Origin: Candidatus Marinacidobacterales bacterium
Lineage (GTDB): Bacteria; Acidobacteriota; Vicinamibacteria; Marinacidobacterales; DATDRI01
Assembly: GCA_965226495.1 (NCBI GenBank)
Contig: OZ245365.1
Coordinates: 3,264,001-3,328,000 of the forward strand
Length of the DNA stretch: 64,000 nucleotides
Direction of reading: 5' to 3'
The notes beneath the pieces were generated by a model, which did no database searches, was not told the origin of the DNA, and saw only the letters and a list, made by a program, of their open reading frames with translations. The position numbers were made by a program, and so were the translations under genes. Shown here piece after piece: positions 16,308 through 27,307 of the stretch (its first letter is position 1; every line of letters begins with the position of its first letter).

Positions 16308-17039
16308 ATGTCGCGAACCGCCGCCGCCCTCATCATCGGGAACGAGCTCCTCGGCGGCAAAATCCAGGAAAGCAACCTCCGCCAGCTCGCCCAGCTCTTG
16401 CGGCAACTCGGCATCAGCCTGAACCGTACCGTGATCGTGGCGGACGATGTAGCAACCATATCGCAAGAAGTCGCGGCGCTGTCTTCGGCCCATGACTTCC
16501 TCTTCACGAGCGGCGGAGTCGGCCCAACCCACGACGACGTCACGATGGAGGGAGTCGCTTCCGCCTTCGGCGTGCCGGTGGTGACCGATCCCGTCCTCGA
16601 AGAGAAGCTGCGTCTGCATTTCGGAGACAGTATCAACGAGAACCATCTCCGCTTGGCTCTGGTACCGCGAGGCACGCTTTTACTCTCCAACGCCAACTCA
16701 CTTTGGCCGGCGACAGTCATGGCGAACGTGTGGATCCTGCCGGGAATCCCGGAAGTGTTTCAGAAGAAACTGCCGATCGTGCAAGAGCACTTGGGCGGAG
16801 ACTTGCCGTTCCTATCGCGTGCGGTCTACACCAAGCTCGATGAAGCCGATCTCGCTCCCCTGTTGAACGAAGTCGTTCGCAACCACCTGACAGTCGATAT
16901 TGGCTCCTACCCGACGTGGGCGGATCGGAAATACAGTACGAAGCTGACCTTCGATGGAAAGGACGGCGATGCCATTAGCCGGGCGGTAGATGAATTCGTA
17001 GCTTTGCTGCCCGATGGCGAGCCCCAGTGGATCGAATAG
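16308..17039 (+). CDS. CinA-like molybdopterin-binding domain protein
   Basis: IIGNELLGGKIQESN, TSGGVGPTHDDVT, ILPGIP and IGSYP. Confidence 0.88.
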   Translation: MSRTAAALIIGNELLGGKIQESNLRQLAQLLRQLGISLNRTVIVADDVATISQEVAALSSAHDFLFTSGGVGPTHDDVTMEGVASAFGVPVVTDPVLEEKLRLHFGDSINENHLRLALVPRGTLLLSNANSLWPATVMANVWILPGIPEVFQKKLPIVQEHLGGDLPFLSRAVYTKLDEADLAPLLNEVVRNHLTVDIGSYPTWADRKYSTKLTFDGKDGDAISRAVDEFVALLPDGEPQWIE

Positions 17040-17064
17040 CCCCTCCGGGGGCGCGGAGGTACGT

Positions 17065-17320
17065 ATGAGGTTGATCGTATCCATTTCTTTTTTCCTTCTC
17101 TCTTCCACCACGCTGTGTGCCCAATTTTTCGAACCTGAAGTCTATGAGACGCGACGCGAGGCGGTGCTGGAGAATTTGGGCGAGGCGATCGCGATCGTTC
17201 CTGGTTACTCCGGGGCGCTGGGCATGGGTGTCTACCGACAGTCGGCCCACCTCATTTACTTGGCAGGTGTGGAAACTCCCAACGCCTATTTGGTCCTGGA
17301 CGGTCGCTCGAAACGGTACT
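17065..17320 (+). pseudogene. 5' fragment of a secreted Xaa-Pro aminopeptidase (AMP_N domain), truncated
   Basis: GGAGG RBS, signal peptide, EVYETRRE...YRQSAHLIYLAGVETPNAYLVLDG, then the sequence switches to transposase. Confidence 0.65.
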
Positions 17321-18048
17321 TCGTTGCCCCTCAGCCTGTCTCGCATTCACTGGACACCGGGCGCAAAAACGCTTTTCTACGAAGCGAAAGGCTCACATGA
17401 CGACCCCCTCGCTTCTCATCCGCGAGGCGAGGCCCTCGATGTCTTCGAGTTCCTGGCCCGAGTCCTCACGCAAATCCCCAAGCCTCGGCAACACGGCGTG
17501 CACTACATGGGCGCCTACTCCTCGAGAGCGCGCGCCTTTCGAAAAAGGAAAAACCGCCGCCTGCAATCACTCACCAGCCAACAAAACCCCAAAGCCAACT
17601 CTGAGCCGAACCTGTCTCCCAAAAAGCGTGCCGCGCTCAGAAAAAGATGGGCACAGCTCATCAAGCTCATCAGGCGCGTTCATCAGACCGACCCTCTCCG
17701 GTGCGACTGCGGAGGCACCTATCGCGTCATCGCCTTCATCACCGAGCAGAAGGTGATTCGGAAAATCTTGGCTCATCTCGAAAAAAGAAGAAGAAAAAGC
17801 GACTCGCACCCGCCACCCGAGCCCTAGTCACTGGCTTCACACCACGCCACTTGTCCGTTACCCCGACACCAGACGGCCGGAGTGTTTCTTCAACACCTAA
17901 CTCCCCCGGCGGGAGACACTTCTCAACCGCCTTGCCCCGTTTGCTCGAGTTCTGCTACCCTCACCAGGACTCACTCGGACTGCACAGACCCATTCTGGTG
18001 GGGAAAACTCGCGGGCCGGCGCTCGGGAGCGTATGAATTTTCCTATCC
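17320..18048 (+). mobile_element. IS91/ISCR-family remnant: transposase 3' half (to 17827) plus oriIS-like end
   Basis: PLSLSRI, FEFLARVLTQIP.PRQH.VHYMGAYS, WAQLI..V...DPLRCDCGG...IAFIT...IRKILAHL. Terminus GCGTATGAATTTTCCTATCC at ~18029-18048. The left junction is approximate. Confidence 0.75.
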
Positions 18049-18119
18049 TTTATCCTTTCTCCACGAACGCCCGTTAAGCGTCCTGCCCCCCTAATGTAGC
18101 GCGCCGTCCGAGCAAAAGT

Positions 18120-19478
18120 TCACTGGCGCTCGCTCACTCCGGTTGCCTCAATCGGTAGGGTAATTGTGAATTCGGTGCCCTTTCCCACCTGGCTGGCTAC
18201 TTCTATCTGGCCACGGTGTTTGTGCACAATGTGCCGAGCGGCCGTTAAGCCCAGGTTCGCTCCGACTCTAGAACCTTGGGATCGAAAGCCCAAATCGAAG
18301 AGGGTCCTCGCGTCTTCCGGCGACATGCCTTTTCCGGTATCTAAGATCTTAGACGTAGAGGGTCCTCGCGTCTTCCGGCGAACACTCTTCTCCTTCGTGA
18401 AAGTTCTAATTGTGACGCTGCCCCGCCATTCAACCGCCTGTATGGCAGTCATCAGTAAAGCCATGAAGACTTGGTTGAGCTCGCCGTGGTTACCATGAAT
18501 CTCCGGAATACAGCCATACTCTTTTACCAAACTTATTCCCTCCTTAATTTCGTTTTGAATTAAGGTTAGGGTACTTTCAATTCCTTCGTGAATGTTGGCC
18601 TTCTGGAATTCGCCTTCGTCCAATCTAGTAAAACTCTTCAAACTCTTTGCTATTCTGGCGATTCTGTCACTGGCAGATGAAGAAGTCTGACTATTTTCTT
18701 GGAGAATTCTAAGGCACTCTTGATAATCACGACTATTCTTGACTTCAGCAGGCGTTTCGCTATTTTCCAAAATCTGCTCCAACCTAGCGACAGAACGAAT
18801 TAACACGTCCGCATTACCCTTAATCACGCCAATAGGCGTATTGATTTCGTGAACAATGCCTGCGGTAAGCTGTCCGAGGGCCGCCATCTTCTCAGATTGA
18901 ACCAATTGAGCCTGGGCAGTTTGTAACTCGCTCTCCACTCGCTTGCGCTCCAGTTCAGCGGTGGCTCGTGCAGCGAAGATTTTGAAAATCGACAGGTCAC
19001 GATGTTCACCAGTCATGGGCTTATCATCTAACGTGGCCAAGTGGCCTAGCACATCGCCCGAAGAGTCGACTAGTGGTATCGCCAGATAGCTCTCCGCACC
19101 TAATTCGACGAGTGCTTCATCCTCCGGAAAAGCAGATTGCACATTTTCAGCATAGCGACAAATCTCGCCGCGCAACACTTTCTCGCAGGGTGTTCCAGCA
19201 AGATTGTAGCCATAGTTGTCCATAAAGCTATGGTCTTTCCAAAAGGCCAGTGTTCTGACTCTGGTTTTCACCTCCGTAAACTCGGAAATGAAGGCATAGC
19301 GTACGTGAAGCGCGCAGGCAAGATTTCGGACAAGCGAACGAAAAAAATCATCGCCCGTCAATGGAGCTGTACCTTCAATGATCGTGCGGAATATGTCATC
19401 CCGACTTGCTTGGGTTCTCTGCATCGCTGTCGGGCCCACAACACTCGATCCAAAGGACTGACTGACGCAATAGCTCAT
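18120..19478 (-). CDS. Cytoplasmic GAF-domain sensor histidine kinase
   Basis: GAF (FFRSLV...GTPCEKV...YLAIPL), QSEKMAALGQLTAGIVHEINTP H-box, LNQVF, DTGKG, G.GTEF. The start may be the ATG at 19424. Visibly more AT-rich than its flanks. Confidence 0.85.
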   Translation of the reverse strand: MSYCVSQSFGSSVVGPTAMQRTQASRDDIFRTIIEGTAPLTGDDFFRSLVRNLACALHVRYAFISEFTEVKTRVRTLAFWKDHSFMDNYGYNLAGTPCEKVLRGEICRYAENVQSAFPEDEALVELGAESYLAIPLVDSSGDVLGHLATLDDKPMTGEHRDLSIFKIFAARATAELERKRVESELQTAQAQLVQSEKMAALGQLTAGIVHEINTPIGVIKGNADVLIRSVARLEQILENSETPAEVKNSRDYQECLRILQENSQTSSSASDRIARIAKSLKSFTRLDEGEFQKANIHEGIESTLTLIQNEIKEGISLVKEYGCIPEIHGNHGELNQVFMALLMTAIQAVEWRGSVTIRTFTKEKSVRRKTRGPSTSKILDTGKGMSPEDARTLFDLGFRSQGSRVGANLGLTAARHIVHKHRGQIEVASQVGKGTEFTITLPIEATGVSERQ

Positions 19479-20326
19479 TGTAAGCTCCTTCTTCTAACGT
19501 CGTTTCTCAGAGAGTTTCGATCCGCCGTTCTAGGTTTCGGTGCCAACCGAGCCCGAGAGCCTCGGGGTCCTCGCGGGAGACAAGGTTGCTCGCTTGCGAC
19601 GCGCAGCTTTGCTGGCCCATCTGTCTCTTGATAGCGCTCGAGCGCGTTTCGAACCTTCGTGCGTCCCCGGTGGAGCAACACTTTTTGATTGGCCTCGGTC
19701 AGTCCAAGTACTTGACAGACCTCTTCCGCGGACCAGCCCTCGATATCCCGCAGGGTGACGACCTCGGCTTGTCGCGGGGGCATCGACTGAAGTTCCTTCC
19801 GGATCATCGTGATCGTTTCTGTCGACAAGAGACGATCTTCGGGCGTCTGTCTCCATCGGCGAGGCGGGGACATCCAGGCGTGTCGATCGTCTGAGAATCG
19901 CTCGGCTGCCGCCGCAAGATTGTCGGCAGGGTTCTCGATTTCACTCAGGGACGAAAACGGGACCGTCCGTCGTTCCCTCTTGGCTCTCGTTCGCGCGACA
20001 TTCATGAGAATCGAGAAGATCCAAGTTTTGAGTGAAGAGCGACCCTCGAAGCGCTCCAGGCCTCGAATCGCCGCGAGCCAAGTCTCCTGAACTACCTCTT
20101 CCGCCATCTCTCGATCAGAAAGGACCGATCTCGCGAGGCCAAGCATGGACGACGAGAGCCGCTCGAGCAAGACCTCGAACGCCCTCTCGTTGCCGGCCCG
20201 GAGTGCCTCTATGAAGTCCTTCTCTTGATGGTATCCGTCGGCGCTCTGCCCCCGCTGGAGAGGCCACAGGATGGTGGTCGGGCTCGTTGCAACCGTTTCC
20301 ATTTGCTGGGTCATGTGCTGGGTCAT
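19475..20326 (-). CDS. ECF RNA polymerase sigma factor
   Basis: AEEVVQETWL, FEGRSSLKTWIFSILMN and VVTLRDIEGWSAEEVC...VLLHRGR. AAGGAG RBS before the ATG at 20326. Carries a C-terminal tail of uncertain meaning. Confidence 0.9.
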   Translation of the reverse strand: MTQHMTQQMETVATSPTTILWPLQRGQSADGYHQEKDFIEALRAGNERAFEVLLERLSSSMLGLARSVLSDREMAEEVVQETWLAAIRGLERFEGRSSLKTWIFSILMNVARTRAKRERRTVPFSSLSEIENPADNLAAAAERFSDDRHAWMSPPRRWRQTPEDRLLSTETITMIRKELQSMPPRQAEVVTLRDIEGWSAEEVCQVLGLTEANQKVLLHRGRTKVRNALERYQETDGPAKLRVASEQPCLPRGPRGSRARLAPKPRTADRNSLRNDVRRRSLQ

Positions 20327-20485
20327 GGAATTTCTCCTTTCCTGGAAAGCAATTTGCCAGTGGCCCCTCTGGAACACCATGCCGAGCAGATCACGGGTGC
20401 GTCAAAGCGTCTTCACGATGCAAATAATTGATTCTTAAAGAGTTGGTGAGTTGGATCACGCAGAAAAGGGTGGGTTGCCCCAAGG

Positions 20486-20516
20486 AAAAAGGTCCCGCGC
20501 CTTTCGGCGGGGACCT
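20486..20516 (-). terminator. Intrinsic terminator after the cytochrome P460 gene
   Basis: GC hairpin AGGTCCCCGCC-GAAA-GGCG(C)GGGACCT followed by a T-tract on the minus strand. Confidence 0.6.
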
Positions 20517-20540
20517 CGAGGATGAGCGCCAAACCCTAAG

Positions 20541-21746
20541 CTATTTGGGCGGATACTCCGTCAAGACAAAGTCCTTGCCCGTGGAGTGGCAGCCGGAGCA
20601 GAGGGGAAGGCCGTTGCCAACCCCGACAATGTCACTGCTGTCTTCCGTGTTGGTCGTTTCGTACCAGAACCAACCCTGCCCTTGAGCGCTGTCTTCTTGG
20701 GTCTTGACCATCACCGCCCAGCCGAGAAGCTCGGAACCATCCTCGCTGTACATTTCCTTCACGATCGATGAGCCGGCCGGATGCGACGCATTTCCTGCCG
20801 CGAGGGAAGCGTCGATCTTGGCATCCAAGTAGACGCGAACCGGCCAGCTGAACTTGGCATGGGGTCCTCGGGAAGCGTGTTTCTCAGATTCTTGGCTCTC
20901 GAATGACCTGTATGAGCCAGCTTTGAGGAATTCGTGAAGCCTTTGGGCTTCGGTGGGCACGACCGAGTCCACGGTAGGTGTATCGGCTGTCGCTTTCATG
21001 GCCGACTCGGACGCGCCGAGCATCGTATCCGCCATGCGATCGTACGACTCGTCGCCGCTTCGCATCGCCGCGCCGCTGGGAGACGCTGAGGAAGGAGAGC
21101 CCAGAGAGCTCTGCCGCGGCCCCTTTGCGGCGCGCAGCACCGGATAGTACTGGGTAAAGACCCCATTATCCGCGGCAGCCGCTTCGTGGCAGGAGCTACA
21201 TGCCGCGGCTGGGAATTTCTCTGCGGTGTCCGCAAGCGGATAGCTATGGCCGAAGCTGAAGTAAGCCCAGTTCCCTGGCTCGTCGGGAAAACGGTTCGAG
21301 TCCTTGACAGCGGCCTCCAAACCGATGAACTCGCCCATGAAGTAGCCTCTACCGCTAGCGGCCGCCTTCGAGCCCACGCTGACGAGCTCCTTGACCAGGA
21401 CTGTCCCCTCCCGGAAATTTCCGGTTTCCATGTAGTGGTCGTAGCTCTCGGGATCGATATAGACGTTGTGGAAGTCCGGGAACGGCGCTTCGGGCGGATT
21501 CATGTCGTTGGGTGTCAGCGGCGTTCCGATGTACACCCACGTCCGGTAACCCGTGGGCCGGATGAGCCAACCCTGGCCATCGAAGTGGACCGGCGTTTCC
21601 TCCTGCGGTGGCTCGGCCGTCGCAAAGAGAGCAGGACTGAGGATGTAGCTCGATGCGAGAACCGTCAGCCCCATAACAACGGCCAGGCCCACAACCCTCG
21701 ATCCAAAGGACTGAATGACGCGATACTTCATTTGCATTTCGTTCAT
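20541..21746 (-). CDS. Tandem two-domain cytochrome P460-family protein (two CxxCH)
   Basis: Signal peptide. Domain 1: WVYIGTPLTPN..N, GTVLVKELVSVG, GYFMG..IGLEAAVKD, CSSCH, VFTQYYPVL. Ser-rich linker. Domain 2: GSSIVKEMY, AVMVK, GWFWYE, CSGCH. Confidence 0.88.
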   Translation of the reverse strand: MNEMQMKYRVIQSFGSRVVGLAVVMGLTVLASSYILSPALFATAEPPQEETPVHFDGQGWLIRPTGYRTWVYIGTPLTPNDMNPPEAPFPDFHNVYIDPESYDHYMETGNFREGTVLVKELVSVGSKAAASGRGYFMGEFIGLEAAVKDSNRFPDEPGNWAYFSFGHSYPLADTAEKFPAAACSSCHEAAAADNGVFTQYYPVLRAAKGPRQSSLGSPSSASPSGAAMRSGDESYDRMADTMLGASESAMKATADTPTVDSVVPTEAQRLHEFLKAGSYRSFESQESEKHASRGPHAKFSWPVRVYLDAKIDASLAAGNASHPAGSSIVKEMYSEDGSELLGWAVMVKTQEDSAQGQGWFWYETTNTEDSSDIVGVGNGLPLCSGCHSTGKDFVLTEYPPK

Positions 21747-21754
21747 ACAGATAC

Positions 21755-21827
21755 AGTCTCCCGCTGCAGATTTCCGTTACGCTGTTCGGTCGGAATCCGT
21801 GTAACGAAAAGGCAGGGACGGAAGACT
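21755..21827. promoter_or_regulatory. Divergent pair of putative ECF promoters (P460 gene / anti-sigma)
   Basis: Minus strand CGTAAC-N16-AGACT (21781-21755). Plus strand TGTAAC-N17-AGACT (21800-21827). Confidence 0.7.
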
Positions 21828-21834
21828 TGTCATA

Positions 21835-22113
21835 GTGCCGGAACTGATCCCTTCGGAATACTCGATGGCGCCTGACGCACTCACTTGCCGGGAGCTCGCA
21901 GAGCTCCTCACCGACTACCTAGAGGAATCGCTTCCCGCTCCCCAGCGGAAACGGTTCGAAGCGCACCTACGCAATTGCAAGAGTTGTCAGGACGACCTGG
22001 AGGAAATGCGGGCAACGTTGATTGCCCTGAGGCGTCTACCCAGGGAGTCTCTAAAACTGGCGACGAAGCACAGGCTGCTTCGGGCATTCAGAAGATGTAC
22101 TCAACGGCATTAG
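21835..22113 (+). CDS. Small soluble zf-HC2 (ZAS) anti-sigma factor
   Basis: LTCRELAELLTDYLE...RFEAHLRNCKSC (HxxxCxxC). Confidence 0.85.
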   Translation: MPELIPSEYSMAPDALTCRELAELLTDYLEESLPAPQRKRFEAHLRNCKSCQDDLEEMRATLIALRRLPRESLKLATKHRLLRAFRRCTQRH

Positions 22114-22241
22114 CTGTTCGACAACATCTACGTTGACACCCAGCGGACAAATCGAACTTAGGAGATGGGAAGAAAACTGCCCGGTTCGTTGCGTGACGTC
22201 TCGAGCGAACACTATAATCAGCTCGAAATCCGGGCCAGGCC

Positions 22242-24116
22242 ATGTCGACGTTTCAATCGTCCAACTCCATCCGATTTGGGAACTTTGAAGTCGATCCCCG
22301 CGCTGGAGAGCTAAGGAAGAACGGACGGCCGGTTAAGCTCCAGGAACAACCCCTCCAGCTCTTGCTCTTGCTTCTTGAGCATCCTGGCGAAGTCGTAACC
22401 CAGGAAGAAGCGCGAAATACTCTCTGGAGAGAGGATACTTTCGTCGACTTTGAACATGGTCTCGGCGCCGCACTGAACCGTTTGCGCGCCGCCCTGGGTG
22501 ACTCCGCGAGTAATCCTCGTTTCATCGAAACGCTGCCTCGCCACGGATATCGGTTCATCGCGCCCGTAGCGGCAGGCTCGCCGAACGAACCGGAATCCGT
22601 GGCGGTGAGTCCGCCGACGAAACCTGTCGCCTTTAGATATGGCGGCTGGGTGGTCGCTTTCGGGGCGTTGATGCTCTCGATCTATCTGCTGAGAGAGCGT
22701 GTTCCGGCACCAACAAGCGCCGGCGCGGACACGAATATGCTCGTCGTGCTTCCCTTCGACAACTTGAGCGGCGACCCGGAGCAAGAGTATTTCAGCGACG
22801 GCCTGACCGAGGAGATCATCACCCACGTGGGCCAACTTAGCTTTGAACGACTCGGCGTCATTGCCCGCACGTCGAGCATGACATACAAGAACACGACACA
22901 GACGATCGAGCAGATAGGGCAGGATCTCGGCGTGAACTACGTGCTCGAGGGAAGTGTGCGGCGTGAGGGCGGACGCGTCCGGATTACCGCCCAGCTCATC
23001 TCCGTGAGCGATCAAACCCATGTTTGGGCAGAGAGCTACGACCGCGAGCTCCAAGGGATTCTTGCCTTGCAAAGCGACGTTTCCCGGCAGGTCGCCAAGG
23101 CCGTGGCCGGCGAGCTTGGGCTTGCGAACGACCCGGTGGTTGCCCCAGAACTGGCGCACACGGACGCTTATGACGCGTACCTCAAAGGTCGTTTCTACTG
23201 GAACAAGCGCGATGCCCAGGGCTTCCAGAAAGCCATCGAGTACTTCCAAGAGGCCATCGACATCGACCCGCGTTTCGCGCCTGCATACGCGGGGCTGGCT
23301 GACTGCTACGCGCTGCTAAGCGTCTCCTTTGACCTGCTACCTCCGGGAGAGGCGCAGTCCAAAGCGAGGACGATGGCCAGAAAAGCACTGGAAATCGACC
23401 CCAACCTGGCCGAAGCCTATGCTTCCCTGGGACTCGTACGGCACGGTTACGATTGGGACTGGGCGGGCGCATCCGAAGCGTTCCAGCGCGCCATCGAACT
23501 CAACCCAAGCTATGCGACCGCATACCACTGGCACGCACTTCATCTGGCAGGCATGGGTCGGTTCGAGCAAGCGCTCGATGAAATGAGACGAGCCCGGGCT
23601 CTGGATCCTCTCTCTCTGATCATCAACACTGACCTAGGGAGGGTGCTCTATACCGCGCGCCGGTACGACGAGGCCACAAAACAGTTGCAAGAAACCCTGG
23701 GTTTGGACCCGCACTTCGTGCCGGCGCGCATCTGGCTGTCTAGCGTATACCTGCAGAGAAAAATGTTCGAAGAGGCCATCGAAGTCTCCCGGACGGTAGC
23801 TACCATCGAGAACGGTGGACCGACGGCACTCGCCCTGCTCGGCGCCAGTTATGCCGCGGCGGGAAAGACAACCGACGCCATGGAAATTCTCCAGACGCTA
23901 AAACAGTTGTCCAACCAGCGCCACGTGTCACCAGCAAGCATCGCGCTCGTGTACGCGAACCTTGGCGACCCCGATGAGGCGTTTGCCTGGCTGGAGAAGG
24001 CTTTCGGGCAACGTTCCGGCTCCCTCCGACTGCTCAAGGTGGATCCCGTATTCGATCCCCTTCGCTCCGATCCGCGTTTTCAGGGTCTGCTTACACGCAT
24101 GAACTTCCCGGAGTGA
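22242..24116 (+). CDS. CadC-like winged-helix / TM / TolB-like / TPR regulator
   Basis: FGNFEVD...LRAALGDSASNPRFIETLPRHGYRF, TM helix, VLPFDNLSGDPEQEYFSDGLTEE, TPRs and DPLRSDPRF. Confidence 0.88.
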   Translation: MSTFQSSNSIRFGNFEVDPRAGELRKNGRPVKLQEQPLQLLLLLLEHPGEVVTQEEARNTLWREDTFVDFEHGLGAALNRLRAALGDSASNPRFIETLPRHGYRFIAPVAAGSPNEPESVAVSPPTKPVAFRYGGWVVAFGALMLSIYLLRERVPAPTSAGADTNMLVVLPFDNLSGDPEQEYFSDGLTEEIITHVGQLSFERLGVIARTSSMTYKNTTQTIEQIGQDLGVNYVLEGSVRREGGRVRITAQLISVSDQTHVWAESYDRELQGILALQSDVSRQVAKAVAGELGLANDPVVAPELAHTDAYDAYLKGRFYWNKRDAQGFQKAIEYFQEAIDIDPRFAPAYAGLADCYALLSVSFDLLPPGEAQSKARTMARKALEIDPNLAEAYASLGLVRHGYDWDWAGASEAFQRAIELNPSYATAYHWHALHLAGMGRFEQALDEMRRARALDPLSLIINTDLGRVLYTARRYDEATKQLQETLGLDPHFVPARIWLSSVYLQRKMFEEAIEVSRTVATIENGGPTALALLGASYAAAGKTTDAMEILQTLKQLSNQRHVSPASIALVYANLGDPDEAFAWLEKAFGQRSGSLRLLKVDPVFDPLRSDPRFQGLLTRMNFPE

Positions 24117-24135
24117 ATCGTCGCTCGTAAAGGAA

Positions 24136-24173
24136 GCGCCCTGGGAGCCGCCGACAAGCCGCTCCCAGGGCGC
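24136..24173. terminator. Inverted repeat between convergent genes
   Basis: Perfect 13-bp IR GCGCCCTGGGAGC...GCTCCCAGGGCGC. Confidence 0.5.
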
Positions 24174-24190
24174 CCGGGCAGGCAAGCAAA

Positions 24191-24727
24191 CTAGCTCTCT
24201 TCCACGATATCCGGCTTCAGGGTGCCAATGATCTCGAGAAGCTCTGATTTCTCGGCGGCAGGAACTTTGAATTTATCCAAGGTGTCAACCAAGTGTTGCA
24301 CCACGATGTTGAATTCCTTTTCAGTGATGCCGAGTCCACCATGAATGGTCTTGGCTGGCCGGCTGATGATCTTGCAGGGGCCCCCGGTGACGTTGCAGAC
24401 CAAATTCTTGTTCTTCTGCCTGAACTGCTGCCTTGTATCATCGCCCATGCCCCTGAAAAACTGGGCAATGCGAGGATCAACAAACAACTTTCCCGCGAAG
24501 TCGTCGACCACGGCAGAAATCGCATCGTACCCGCCGAGCCGCTCGTATAACGATTTTCCCTCATCTGATTCATCTGGAGCCGACGAGCTCTCGACCGCAG
24601 ACTCCAACAATGGGAGGCTGCCTTCGACAAGCGACGGCGGAGTCACAAGCAATACGGTTGCTAAGAAGAGCCCCTCACCCAGAAGAAAACTCCTCGTTCT
24701 TCTCCAATTTCCTATTGCAAACATCAC
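24191..24727 (-). CDS. Group I truncated hemoglobin with N-terminal export-like leader
   Basis: SLYERLGGYDAISAVVDDF, DPRIAQFF, TGGP, proximal H in KTIHGGLGIT..EF. Hydrophobic leader. Confidence 0.88.
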   Translation of the reverse strand: MMFAIGNWRRTRSFLLGEGLFLATVLLVTPPSLVEGSLPLLESAVESSSAPDESDEGKSLYERLGGYDAISAVVDDFAGKLFVDPRIAQFFRGMGDDTRQQFRQKNKNLVCNVTGGPCKIISRPAKTIHGGLGITEKEFNIVVQHLVDTLDKFKVPAAEKSELLEIIGTLKPDIVEES

Positions 24728-24794
24728 AATCCTCCTTTTTAGGTTCGTGCCCTTCGGCGATCGTTCACCTGGGACAACGCACGTTCAGAGGCCT

Positions 24795-24863
24795 AGTCCA
24801 TCTATGAGGCGTTTCGTTACAAGGTGAAACCTGGGATGTAACGTTTCAACCTACGGGAGGACT
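24795..24863. promoter_or_regulatory. Divergent pair of putative ECF promoters (globin / hemA)
   Basis: Minus strand TGTAAC-N16-GGACT (24821-24795). Plus strand TGTAAC-N16-GGACT (24837-24863). Confidence 0.7.
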
Positions 24864-24874
24864 ATTTCTATGCC

Positions 24875-26083
24875 ATGCCGGAAATGAAAGGAAAAGAGCT
24901 TCGACTGCTTGGCGCAAGCTACTGTACGGCGCCGGTCGAGGTGAGGGAGTCTCTCGGCCACTTCGTCGCCGAGACTAAAGCGCGCTTGCTGCCGAACGAA
25001 CCAGAAGAGTTGGAGCTCGTCGTCCTTTCTACCTGCAATCGCATTGAGATTTACACTTGGGCCCCGATACAGGCTGACTACCTGGACCAATGGTTTCGAC
25101 AGATTGCCGATAGCATTCGGCCCGGCGGCGCCTTTTCGAACGAAACGCTATATCACCATCGAGGCGAGTCAGCGGCGCGGCATCTGTTCCGAGTCGCTTG
25201 CGGGCTGGACTCGGCGGTCCTGGGTGATGTGCAGATACTGTCGCAGATCAAGCAGGCCCGGACGGCCGCGAAGGAGGCGCGAAGGCTTGGCATCTTCCTG
25301 GAACAGATCTTTCGGGTGGCCATCCAAGCGGGAAAACGGGCAAGACACGAAACCGAGATCGGGTATGGTGCGGCCAGCGTGGGTTCCGCCCTCGCCAGCA
25401 TGCTCCGCCACCGCTCGAACTCCGGTTCTTTTCGCATCCTCCTTATCGGAGCCGGTAACGCCGCTCGCAACATTGGTCTGCACCTTGCCAAATCCGAGCT
25501 AGGCTCCATTGTATGCATCAACCGCACCCGCCACAAAGCGAACGAGCTTGCCCTTCAGTTGGGGGGAAAGTCCCGGGCCTGGGACGAGCTCGAACCAGCG
25601 TTGCTCGAAAGCGACCTTGTCATTGCCGCGACATCGGCCGCCGAGCCCGTCCTTCAGAAAAACGACCTTGAGGAATTAGCCCGCCGGCGGCGCGGCGCGC
25701 CCATTTTGATCGTCGACGCTGGCCTTCCCAGAAATGTGGAACCTGGCTCTCCTTTGGACGTGATTGGGATCGATGAAGTCCGTGAGCGGCAGGAACAGGT
25801 TATGGCAAGGCGTCGGGCTTCGGTGCCATCGGTGGAGCGAATCGTTCAGGACGCGGTCGAGGAGTGGCGACACTGGGTTGTTTCTAGGCCCATAGAGGAA
25901 ATCGTTCGATCCCTGTTTCAAGAAGTGCCCAGCTACACAAGACAGGCGGCAGCCAGCCTCGTCGACGGCAAAGTACTGACGCCGGAAAAAGCAGAACGAA
26001 TCCTCGAGAAGTCTGTTCGGCAACTCCTCCATGACCACGTCCGCCGCCTGCGCACCCTCGCCGTCCCGGGCCAGTCGCACTAA
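24875..26083 (+). CDS. hemA: Glutamyl-tRNA reductase (divergent, stand-alone)
   Basis: TAPVEVRE, LSTCNRIE catalytic Cys, HLFRVACGLDS.VLGD.QIL.Q, GKRARHET.I, IGAG, NRT and D..LPRNVE. Confidence 0.88.
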   Translation: MPEMKGKELRLLGASYCTAPVEVRESLGHFVAETKARLLPNEPEELELVVLSTCNRIEIYTWAPIQADYLDQWFRQIADSIRPGGAFSNETLYHHRGESAARHLFRVACGLDSAVLGDVQILSQIKQARTAAKEARRLGIFLEQIFRVAIQAGKRARHETEIGYGAASVGSALASMLRHRSNSGSFRILLIGAGNAARNIGLHLAKSELGSIVCINRTRHKANELALQLGGKSRAWDELEPALLESDLVIAATSAAEPVLQKNDLEELARRRRGAPILIVDAGLPRNVEPGSPLDVIGIDEVRERQEQVMARRRASVPSVERIVQDAVEEWRHWVVSRPIEEIVRSLFQEVPSYTRQAAASLVDGKVLTPEKAERILEKSVRQLLHDHVRRLRTLAVPGQSH

Positions 26084-26296
26084 CTCGAACAACTCTTCAT
26101 CCCAAGTAGCGACGGCAACATCCGCTTAATGACTTAGCGAACCCTCACCCGCCGTCTGGCCACGTTCTTGTTCGGCACGGAGCATTTTGACGGCCACAGG
26201 CTTCCAAGGGGGAGAGGGAATGACGGAAGGAAGCCATCGTCCATTTCTCGTAGACCACAATCTGCTTGGCCATTCCATCACCACCCAAACCCGCCT

Positions 26297-27307
26297 CTAC
26301 TTGTGAGAAATGATGACCGCTTCGGTCATTCCGGGAGCGGGATGGATTTCGTGTTTCGAAAAGCCGGCTTCCTCGAACATCTGTTTGTATTGTGCGAAGG
26401 TGTAAGCATCCCCTCTCGGCGTGGAACACAGCATGGTGAGGGAGAACATGGCGGCGTCCGGAGGTGACACGCGGTCATCGTTGGGCACGAACTCCAAGGT
26501 CATTGCCCGTCCACCCGGCTTGAGGGCACCGTACACCCTCCTCGCCAACTCGGTGCACGTCGGTACGTCGAAATGGTGGAAGAAGTTGGTAAGCAAGACG
26601 AGGTCATAATCTGTCCCGTAATCGACCTCGAACGCGCTTCCGGGCTTGAGATGATGCCGATCTGCCACGCCCGCCGCCTGCGCATTCTCCGTTGCGACCT
26701 CTAAAACGGCGGGCCAATCGACCGCAAAGATCTCCGCCTCAGGGTTTTTCTGTGCCACGTGGATTCCGAAGAGGCCATGCCCCGCCGCGATGTCCAGCAC
26801 TTTGATCGGCCCTTGAGCCGGCCCGACGAGCTCGGCGATGAACTGCGCCGAAGGAGCGACCAGAGGAGCCATCCCCCGCGCAAACTCGATCCATAGCGGG
26901 TTCTCGGCGGTCACCGATCCGTCTTCCTCCATAAGCGTGCCGCCCTTCCGAACGGTCCCGGCAACATTCCGAAACGCATCGGCCAGGTCTGGTGCCAAGA
27001 GAAAACGAGTTGCCACACCGATATAAGCGGGCGAGCTCTTGTCGAGAAAAAGGGCGGTGTCGGGAGTCAGGCCATAGCTGTGATCGGCCTTCGTCAAGAA
27101 CCCGGCGACCACGAGATAGTCGCAGAGAATACGCACTCCTCGCTCGGTGGCGTCGAGCCGCTTGGCCAATGCATCAGCGGTGGTCGCTCCCTTAGCGATC
27201 TCGGTGAACAGACCCAGGTCGATCGCCCCCCTCAATGCCTCAGTGCGTTGGTATGCGTTGATGGTGTTAAAGATAAGCTCTGGCGACGGTGCTTTGCTCT
27301 TACTCAT
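26297..27307 (-). CDS. O-methyltransferase (family 2, with dimerisation domain)
   Basis: AIDLGLF, VLDIAAGHG, VDWP.V, NFFHHF and LKPGG. Confidence 0.88.
   Translation of the reverse strand: MSKSKAPSPELIFNTINAYQRTEALRGAIDLGLFTEIAKGATTADALAKRLDATERGVRILCDYLVVAGFLTKADHSYGLTPDTALFLDKSSPAYIGVATRFLLAPDLADAFRNVAGTVRKGGTLMEEDGSVTAENPLWIEFARGMAPLVAPSAQFIAELVGPAQGPIKVLDIAAGHGLFGIHVAQKNPEAEIFAVDWPAVLEVATENAQAAGVADRHHLKPGSAFEVDYGTDYDLVLLTNFFHHFDVPTCTELARRVYGALKPGGRAMTLEFVPNDDRVSPPDAAMFSLTMLCSTPRGDAYTFAQYKQMFEEAGFSKHEIHPAPGMTEAVIISHK

Follow-up and report, generated by a model that had tools for sequence, protein, structure and literature searches.

P460 enzymes convert hydroxylamine to N2O or NO, and to our knowledge the physiological role, partners and regulation of these cytochromes outside nitrifiers are largely unknown. 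Glu97 is reported to be required for NH2OH oxidation, with Ala131 present in the inactive AL212 protein (PMC6457333). Periplasmic truncated-haemoglobin domains are described in cable bacteria, where they are fused to pentahaem cytochromes and a function as an oxidase is proposed (PMC11976967). For the extracytoplasmic function (ECF) sigma factors of group 16, a published account gives GTAAC(g/a) as the −35 element and reports induction by reactive oxygen species (PMC3420878). Here, we describe a cluster encoding an ECF sigma factor, a ZAS anti-sigma, a two-domain P460, an exported globin and a second glutamyl-tRNA reductase (GluTR), hemA2, in Candidatus Marinacidobacterales bacterium (Acidobacteriota; Vicinamibacteria). 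It lies in a 64,000-nucleotide stretch, hereafter the window, of contig OZ245365.1 (positions 3,264,001 to 3,328,000), and all coordinates below count from the first letter of that stretch. The genome of the window (G000) is one 6.34-Mb contig, 94.8% complete, and it was compared with 400 other genomes of the class Vicinamibacteria (401 counting G000), among which G002 is of the same genus, G003 of another genus in the same family and G008 of another family. A metagenome scan for the exported globin family returned 80 further loci. Genes were called from the open reading frame (ORF) listing and from profile searches (Pfam, NCBIfam).

Along the window the cluster runs as histidine kinase (−), sigma (−), P460 (−), ZAS (+), CadC-like regulator (+), globin (−) and hemA2 (+), followed downstream of hemA2 by an O-methyltransferase and then a Ca/H exchanger gene. 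The first-pass annotation had listed an ECF sigma, P460, ZAS, globin and hemA, all of which are in place and confirmed by profiles, and the CadC-like regulator and the histidine kinase are now added to them. The reading we favour, to which we give a probability of roughly one half, is that one sigma/ZAS pair controls a four-promoter regulon in which P460 and the globin act on hydroxylamine and NO and hemA2 supplies haem. Its regulatory part, one sigma/ZAS pair and four predicted promoters, is well supported at the sequence level. P460, ZAS, globin and hemA2 are each preceded by the consensus (T/C)GTAACG-N16-(G/A)GACT, so that the shared promoter-like motif noticed at first pass before four genes is real: six copies of GTAAC-N16-18-GACT lie in the window where 0.72 would be expected, and a count of six was reached in none of 100 shuffles. 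Four of the six copies lie in two divergent intergenic regions, each aimed at one of the four genes, as predicted ECF-type promoters of P460 (21755..21780, minus strand, cGTAACG-N16-aGACT), ZAS (21801..21827, plus strand, tGTAACG-N17-aGACT), globin (24795..24820, minus strand, tGTAACG-N16-gGACT) and hemA2 (24838..24863, plus strand, tGTAACG-N16-gGACT). Genome-wide, GTAACG-N15-17-GACT gave 22 matches against ~30 expected from composition, and the refined form [TC]GTAAC[GA]-N15-17-[GA]GACT gave seven in 6.34 Mb, four of them within this 3.1-kb stretch and two of the other three inside long ORFs. The sigma gene itself carries no motif upstream, which speaks against an autoregulation of sigma through this motif. 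Since the P460 ATG lies only 8 nt past GACT, its transcript is probably leaderless; at hemA2 the first ATG is 6 nt and the ORF ATG 11 nt past GACT, and the globin promoter is followed by a 70-nt leader with AGGAGG. A terminator-like GC hairpin with a T-run (20494..20511, minus strand), kept in G008, lies between P460 and sigma, so P460 is probably transcribed separately from sigma; such sites in the region are not above chance (7 vs 8.0).

The motif was then found to follow the sigma family beyond the window. Homologues of the sigma at E≤1e-35, with 41–77% identity, occur in 20 of the 400 other class genomes, and a ZAS homologue adjoins the sigma in 13 of the 18 loci read. Around these homologues the motif occurs 27 times in 275,032 bases, where about one to three copies would be expected, against 0 in the backward-read control and a mean of 0.97 (maximum 5) in 100 Markov-1 simulations. 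The GTAAC–GACT spacer measures 17 nt in 26 of 34 sites, and a G follows GTAAC in 30 of 34. Several of these sites stand directly before a sigma/ZAS operon and many lie 8–11 nt before an ATG, which, as at P460 and hemA2, suggests leaderless transcripts. Because of this enrichment around sigma homologues in other Vicinamibacteria, we assign the motif, as a predicted promoter, to the family of the window sigma. Together with its restriction to the locus (four of seven matches), this supports the earlier proposal of co-regulation as a sigma-specific regulon. In G002, G003 and G008 motif counts are at the control level save for the globin–hemA2 pair. Separately, G002 (L048 7100-7125) and G003 (L059 11039-11064) carry a third GTAACG-N17-GACT, on the minus strand within the 3′ end of the CadC-like gene, that is absent from the window. 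Three g9 genomes (L032, L035, L036) have motif matches near distant P460 genes with a single domain; these matches, one orthologous site that holds a palindrome and is directed away from P460, were set aside as chance or a terminator.

It is very improbable that the motif serves instead as an operator for a different DNA-binding protein, for example the CadC-like regulator. The gene for this regulator (22242..24116, plus strand; Trans_reg_C 1.8e-13 plus TPR families) does stand in the middle of the cluster, and encodes a winged helix-turn-helix (wHTH), one transmembrane segment and a periplasmic TPR domain. Its homologues adjoin the globin in G002 (53% identical) and lie near the sigma in G008 (46%), and TPR proteins related to its C-terminal part adjoin the globin in 4 of the 80 metagenome loci. 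These TPR neighbours are CadC-like only in part, with an AraC helix-turn-helix in L177 and no wHTH in L161 and L164. Opposed to an operator are the two-block ECF architecture with its fixed 17-nt spacer and AAC −35 hallmark, the promoter-like distance and orientation to four starts, and the enrichment at sigma/ZAS loci, where a CadC homologue was found in 1 of 20, ~4 kb from the sigma. The CadC-like gene has no ECF motif of its own, and its product is a possible second regulator of the globin.

The sigma gene (19475..20326, minus strand; ORF open to 20380, start taken at 20326 after AGGAG) encodes an ECF (group IV) sigma by its matches to Sigma70_r2 (1.8e-14), Sigma70_r4_2 (6.9e-14), Sigma70_ECF (1.5e-7) and TIGR02937 (93 bits vs cut-off 42.9); the best NCBIfam equivalogs all stayed below their cut-offs (TIGR02943, 111.7 bits vs 162.2). 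An orthologue of 77% identity was found in G008. The small soluble ZAS anti-sigma (21835..22113, plus strand; start GTG 21835 or ATG 21865, hence 82–92 aa) matched zf-HC2 at 2e-10 (41 bits vs cut-off 22.2), lacks a transmembrane segment and carries the zinc site C-x25-H-x3-C-x2-C (C8, H34, C38, C41), which is invariant in all 12 aligned family members. A structural model of sigma (residues 37–235) with ZAS scored 0.75, against 0.06 for the best of three controls. Among solved complexes 116 of 157 attained the value of 0.75, and among mismatched pairs 2 of 215. The model runs agreed in at least 88% of contacts, and the partner pLDDT (predicted local distance difference test) was at least 84. 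Solved ECF sigma/ZAS complexes exist, and the high model score may therefore reflect likeness to them. Elsewhere in G000, a second sigma/soluble-ZAS pair lies at C1:4888241-4889172; its sigma is 33% identical to that of the window and 46% to that of a pair in G002, and the motif is not near it.

Adjacent to sigma, a cytoplasmic sensor histidine kinase gene (18120..19478, minus strand; HisKA 6e-8, HATPase_c 5e-14) overlaps the sigma stop by 4 nt, and no response regulator adjoins it at the locus. The N-terminal 160 aa of the kinase are 55% identical to a GAF-type kinase adjoining P460 genes in G024 and G030; for this part the best PDB sequence match reached no better than E 0.097, and no Pfam domain was found. 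At 18351-18360, in the HATPase part, contigs from 4 of 4 runs lack 24 nt (1+2+21 or 1+23 nt), and the odd peptide there may stem from an error of assembly or from variation between strains.

The P460 gene (20541..21746, minus strand) encodes a secreted two-domain haem-c protein of 401 aa (PF16694, E 2e-33). The N-domain, with a C-terminal CXXCH, scored 115.8 bits on PF16694 against a cut-off of 27 and matched the N. europaea cytochrome P460 (2je2) at E 1.8e-56 with about 60% identity. Its Lys in VKEL, which we take to be the haem cross-linking residue, its distal Glu in GLEA and its CSSCH all align with the N. europaea residues. The C-domain (CSGCH) reached 23.1 bits, below the same cut-off, and had no PDB sequence match, while a profile–profile comparison with the N-domain family (hhalign) aligned the Lys and CXXCH columns at E 1.6e-4. 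Its AlphaFold model is of low confidence (mean pLDDT 58), and Foldseek found only c′-beta or P460 chains among the matches listed to rank 25 (best E 1.8e-3), which we take as a consistent hint only. By profile, hhalign and Foldseek, the annotation as a two-domain P460 was right, with a divergent second domain that appears to be a remote P460/c′-beta relative. The protein was found in none of the seven genomes of the window's own family, and the closest tandem P460 (58%) is in G022, among Mutator transposases. In G024 and G030 (L028/L029) and in L157, P460 is found beside a P460–cupredoxin fusion or free cupredoxins, DUF4142 and a Haem_bd protein, to which G024 and G030 add a GAF histidine kinase with a response regulator. 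Such neighbourhoods may represent an alternative electron-acceptor and sensing arrangement for P460.

The globin gene (24191..24724, minus strand; Bac_globin 1.3e-10) encodes an exported group I truncated globin with a hydrophobic leader at its N-terminus. It scored 41.9 bits on PF01152 against a cut-off of 21, with HisF8 invariant in the family alignment, and among solved structures M. tuberculosis HbN is the closest to it (E 2e-16). In the distal pocket the residues, by the numbering of HbN, are Ala B10, Asn E11 and Phe E7, and Ala B10 is nearly invariant across the family. A group I globin handling NO/O2 had been annotated here: the group assignment stands, and the TyrB10/GlnE11 pair of the NO-dioxygenating trHbN is missing. 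At E≤1e-8 the family numbers 3356 proteins, and most of the best 120 are 60–87% identical and 150–180 aa long. All 15 close members that were aligned have signal-type N-termini, Ala B10, HisF8 and the Cys pair of CNVTGGPC. To the eye, the N-termini look Sec-type rather than Tat-type; Sec-type export would require periplasmic haem insertion into the globin. Of the 401 class genomes, 20 match the globin at E≤1e-25, the unpublished G245 and G384 among them, with identity above 55% in G002 and G003 alone. A pair of exported globin paralogues, tandem or closely spaced, is present in L174 (5601-6777), L155 and L169, and in L163 (1401-2851) the globin is found near DsrE-like and metallo-beta-lactamase-fold proteins, not P460, which hints at a sulfur connection.

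The remaining target, hemA2 (24875..26083, plus strand), is a second, divergent glutamyl-tRNA reductase gene scoring 270.6 bits on TIGR01035 against a cut-off of 209.55. The canonical hemA of G000, at 4.81 Mb, scored 412 bits; it shares 32% identity with hemA2, and the latter keeps STCNR, whose Cys is presumably the catalytic one. Among the 400 class genomes, genes of the hemA2 type with more than 39% identity were found only in G002 and G003, and in metagenomes the type comprises a 63–88% identical set and a 40–50% clade. In each of the metagenome loci L188 and L169, P460 and the globin flank a 5-aminolevulinate synthase (ALAS) gene (TIGR01821, 641.1 and 641.5 bits; cut-off 338.55). The two synthases are 58% identical to each other and may share one origin. 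This ALAS solution is independent of the GluTR of the window, being a non-homologous route to the same precursor. The earlier idea of a dedicated haem supply thus gains support from an analogous enzyme between P460 and globin in two metagenome loci, and by this analogy we infer that hemA2 may serve as a haem supply.

For the proposed regulon, the following course may be envisaged. A thiol-reactive cytoplasmic signal (an oxidant, a nitrosating or an electrophilic agent) would attack the Cys/His zinc site of ZAS, and the freed sigma would read the (T/C)GTAACG-N16-(G/A)GACT promoters, two of which would probably yield leaderless mRNAs. Production of ZAS from its own target promoter would give negative feedback. 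The cell would then make periplasmic P460 and globin, plus extra hemA2-derived 5-aminolevulinate for their haem, a supply that would escape the usual control on the housekeeping hemA, and the two haem proteins would most likely act jointly on periplasmic hydroxylamine and NO. The thiol-based release of sigma from ZAS, the inducing signal and the P460–globin chemistry are suggested by analogy, and a nitrosative or hydroxylamine trigger in particular is what the known behaviour of these families would suggest.

Several observations weigh against this reading, and a first group concerns how the cluster was put together. G002 is syntenic with the window on both sides, with the CadC-like gene (53%), globin (87%), hemA2 (86%), methyltransferase and exchanger, and keeps both the globin and the hemA2 promoter motifs intact; it lacks the kinase, sigma, P460 and ZAS genes, has intact M24 and S9 peptidase genes there instead, and the closest sigma match there reaches only 34% identity. 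The window holds, within 17014-18100, a truncated 5′ end of the M24 peptidase gene, cut at ~17316 by an IS91/Y2-type remnant (17117..17827, plus strand; PF04986 Y2_Tnp, E 6e-4, a weak 20.3 bits below the cut-off of 20.9); the synteny with G002 stops at that point, and the remnant marks the left edge of the inserted block. Contig depth over 17100-18200 was 5–10 times that of the flanks in 4 of 4 metagenome runs, which indicates either several copies of the element or its presence in more than one organism. In G003, among IS66/IS91 genes, there remain a 3′ fragment of the CadC-like gene, the globin (81%) and a hemA2 that breaks off at residue 178 and is joined there to part of DctM; both motifs are kept, yet no sigma at E≤1e-15 and no ZAS at E≤1e-3 was found. 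The motifs of G002 and G003 thus either have another reader there or are relics. In G008 the sigma orthologue, the only close one, stands beside a P460 remnant reduced to the C-domain and lacking a signal peptide; a ZAS orthologue was not found there. The block of kinase, sigma, P460 and ZAS is accordingly an insertion associated with an insertion sequence (IS), and the cluster a recent composite rather than an ancient operon, so the description as a self-contained module does not hold: it was not inherited as a unit. The composite nevertheless joins genes that are partners elsewhere.

These findings bear most directly on the alternative, which we regard as unlikely, that two unrelated units were joined by an IS-mediated insertion, with sigma/ZAS driving P460 and ZAS only and another ECF sigma reading globin–hemA2. 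It would account for the globin–hemA2 pair of G002 and G003 with both motifs and without sigma, ZAS and P460, for the transposase remnant flanking the block and for the truncated resident gene. Substitutions between G000 and G002 fall in the spacers and spare the GTAACG and GACT elements, and the same GTAAC −35 is used by the unrelated ECF group 16 sigmas (PMC3420878). It is opposed by G000 itself, which has no other sigma of this family (the next best is 33% identical) and, in the genome scan with the refined consensus, no other sigma gene preceded by the motif. Moreover, −35, spacer and −10 are common to all four sites, and the P460–globin pair recurs elsewhere, once with the same motif: L194 has three motif copies in 3.9 kb, one of them directly before a cupin–P460–globin operon.

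A second group of contrary observations concerns recurrence and chemistry. The four genes were not found together in any of the 401 class genomes, in the single genome-contig match or in the 80 metagenome loci, and in these 80 loci no GluTR, sigma or ZAS orthologue stands beside the globin, a 27% identical sigma match being present in one. Neither P460, globin nor hemA was ever among the targets of the sigma family in the sigma loci read elsewhere; the targets there are Pyr_redox_2, AhpC/redoxin, CMD, DUF302, outer membrane protein, YHS and methyltransferase genes, which by sequence gives these regulons a thiol/redox/envelope flavour. With Ala at B10, Asn at E11 and Phe at E7, the globin is doubtful as a classic NO dioxygenase, and neither nirK above cut-off nor NrfA was found in the 94.8% complete G000. 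A profile scan of the window found housekeeping genes in its remainder and no nitrogen-cycle genes. Searched for by synteny as first suggested, the full combination does not recur and the P460–globin linkage does: P460 adjoins the globin in 12 of 80 metagenome loci, Pfam-confirmed in nine, or, by available flank, in 11 of 65 (at least 1 kb), 10 of 46 (at least 2 kb) and 6 of 24 (at least 4 kb). L171 has a tandem P460 like that of the window. A locus of G016 with P460-like, globin and CcmE-domain genes and a motif before the globin was not counted, its globin being 32–38% identical and without a signal peptide.

It is possible, if doubtful, that the same sigma regulon serves a general thiol-oxidative, sulfide- or oxygen-related envelope response, with the P460-type protein and the globin handling O2, H2S or peroxide. 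The family regulons elsewhere (Pyr_redox_2, AhpC/redoxin, CMD/AhpD, YHS), the globin without TyrB10/GlnE11 and the failure to find nirK and NrfA all fit such a response, as do the sulfur genes that take the place of P460 in L163 (DsrE-like and metallo-beta-lactamase fold), L157 (rhodanese) and L171 (methionine sulfoxide reductase). It is countered by the N-domain, which keeps all residues known as needed for NH2OH oxidation at ~60% identity to the N. europaea enzyme, and by the recurrence of P460 as partner of the globin in 12 of the 80 loci, in 18 of which the neighbours were Pfam-scanned. A hydroxylamine/NO regulon remains the reading that we prefer.

A broader proposal can be offered tentatively, at odds clearly below even: P460 and the Ala-B10 globin would form a widespread, unrecognised periplasmic pair in non-nitrifiers, in which P460 oxidises hydroxylamine and the globin takes electrons and/or NO. 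A large haem demand would have led to the repeated recruitment of enzymes for 5-aminolevulinate (GluTR here, ALAS elsewhere), and the pair would have been captured here by a thiol-sensing ECF/ZAS switch. In literature searched by title and abstract we found no account of such a module, and in the literature searched no description of a link between this globin family and P460. The locus supplies a defined candidate regulator and promoter for a P460, and the exported globin family, with its thousands of members, is a candidate P460 partner. The comparative evidence further suggests that secreted haem proteins are coupled to a private 5-aminolevulinate supply, and that this cofactor-provisioning design arose at least twice, with non-homologous enzymes.

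The stretch itself is near-identical in sequencing runs from seven studies, and the cluster is covered piecewise by contigs from runs of four studies; two contigs of one run cover 18022-22794 and 22773-27000. A single contig showed a joint omitting 18050-23837; it came from one run, one side of the joint was 21 letters long, and the joint was dismissed as unreliable. Away from the cluster, the window carries at 3883-10083 genes for DUF7714, phosphosulfolactate synthase (ComA), two fumarate-lyase-family enzymes, a cytochrome c and a pyridoxal phosphate (PLP) enzyme, with a Mutator transposase upstream of this run at 826-2139.

Compared with known systems, the regulatory pair of the window resembles SigR–RsrA of Streptomyces and SigH–RshA of Mycobacterium, which likewise consist of an ECF sigma and a small soluble C-x(25-26)-H-x3-C-x2-C anti-sigma whose gene is under its sigma, as predicted here; the regulons of the window sigma's family elsewhere also hold thioredoxin-fold and disulfide-reductase genes. 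The ZAS of the window is not an RsrA-type orthologue (TIGR03988, 23 bits vs cut-off 62.5), and, unlike in those systems, sigma and anti-sigma are not co-transcribed here and the cargo consists of periplasmic haem proteins and hemA. The SigR promoter consensus also appears to differ from the window motif. OsrA and NrsF, the anti-sigma factors of ECF group 16, are membrane proteins and are not known as ZAS proteins. In ECF group 16, to which EcfF–OsrA of B. japonicum and SigF–NrsF of C. crescentus belong, the −35 element is the same as in the window motif, whereas the −10 is CGAA or (c,t)CG(t,a) after a 14–16 nt spacer, against GACT and 17 nt in the window (PMC3420878). With M. tuberculosis HbN, the globin shares the proximal HisF8 and a Phe-Phe pair before the E helix; TyrB10, GlnE11 and LeuE7 of HbN are replaced by Ala, Asn and Phe, and unlike HbN it has a signal peptide and the conserved Cys pair of CNVTGGPC. 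A precedent for periplasmic truncated globins beside c-type cytochromes is provided by cable bacteria (PMC11976967); there they are fusion domains, whereas the window globin belongs to a free-standing 150–180 aa family and is encoded beside P460. The N-domain shares with the P460 of Nitrosomonas europaea (2JE2/2JE3) the cross-link Lys, the Glu97 equivalent and the CXXCH, and the structural matches of the C-domain, c′-beta and P460, recall the P460/cytochrome c′-beta pair of Methylococcus capsulatus. Unlike in N. europaea and M. capsulatus, the two P460-fold domains are here fused in one secreted protein, behind a predicted ECF promoter, in a non-nitrifying member of the Acidobacteriota.

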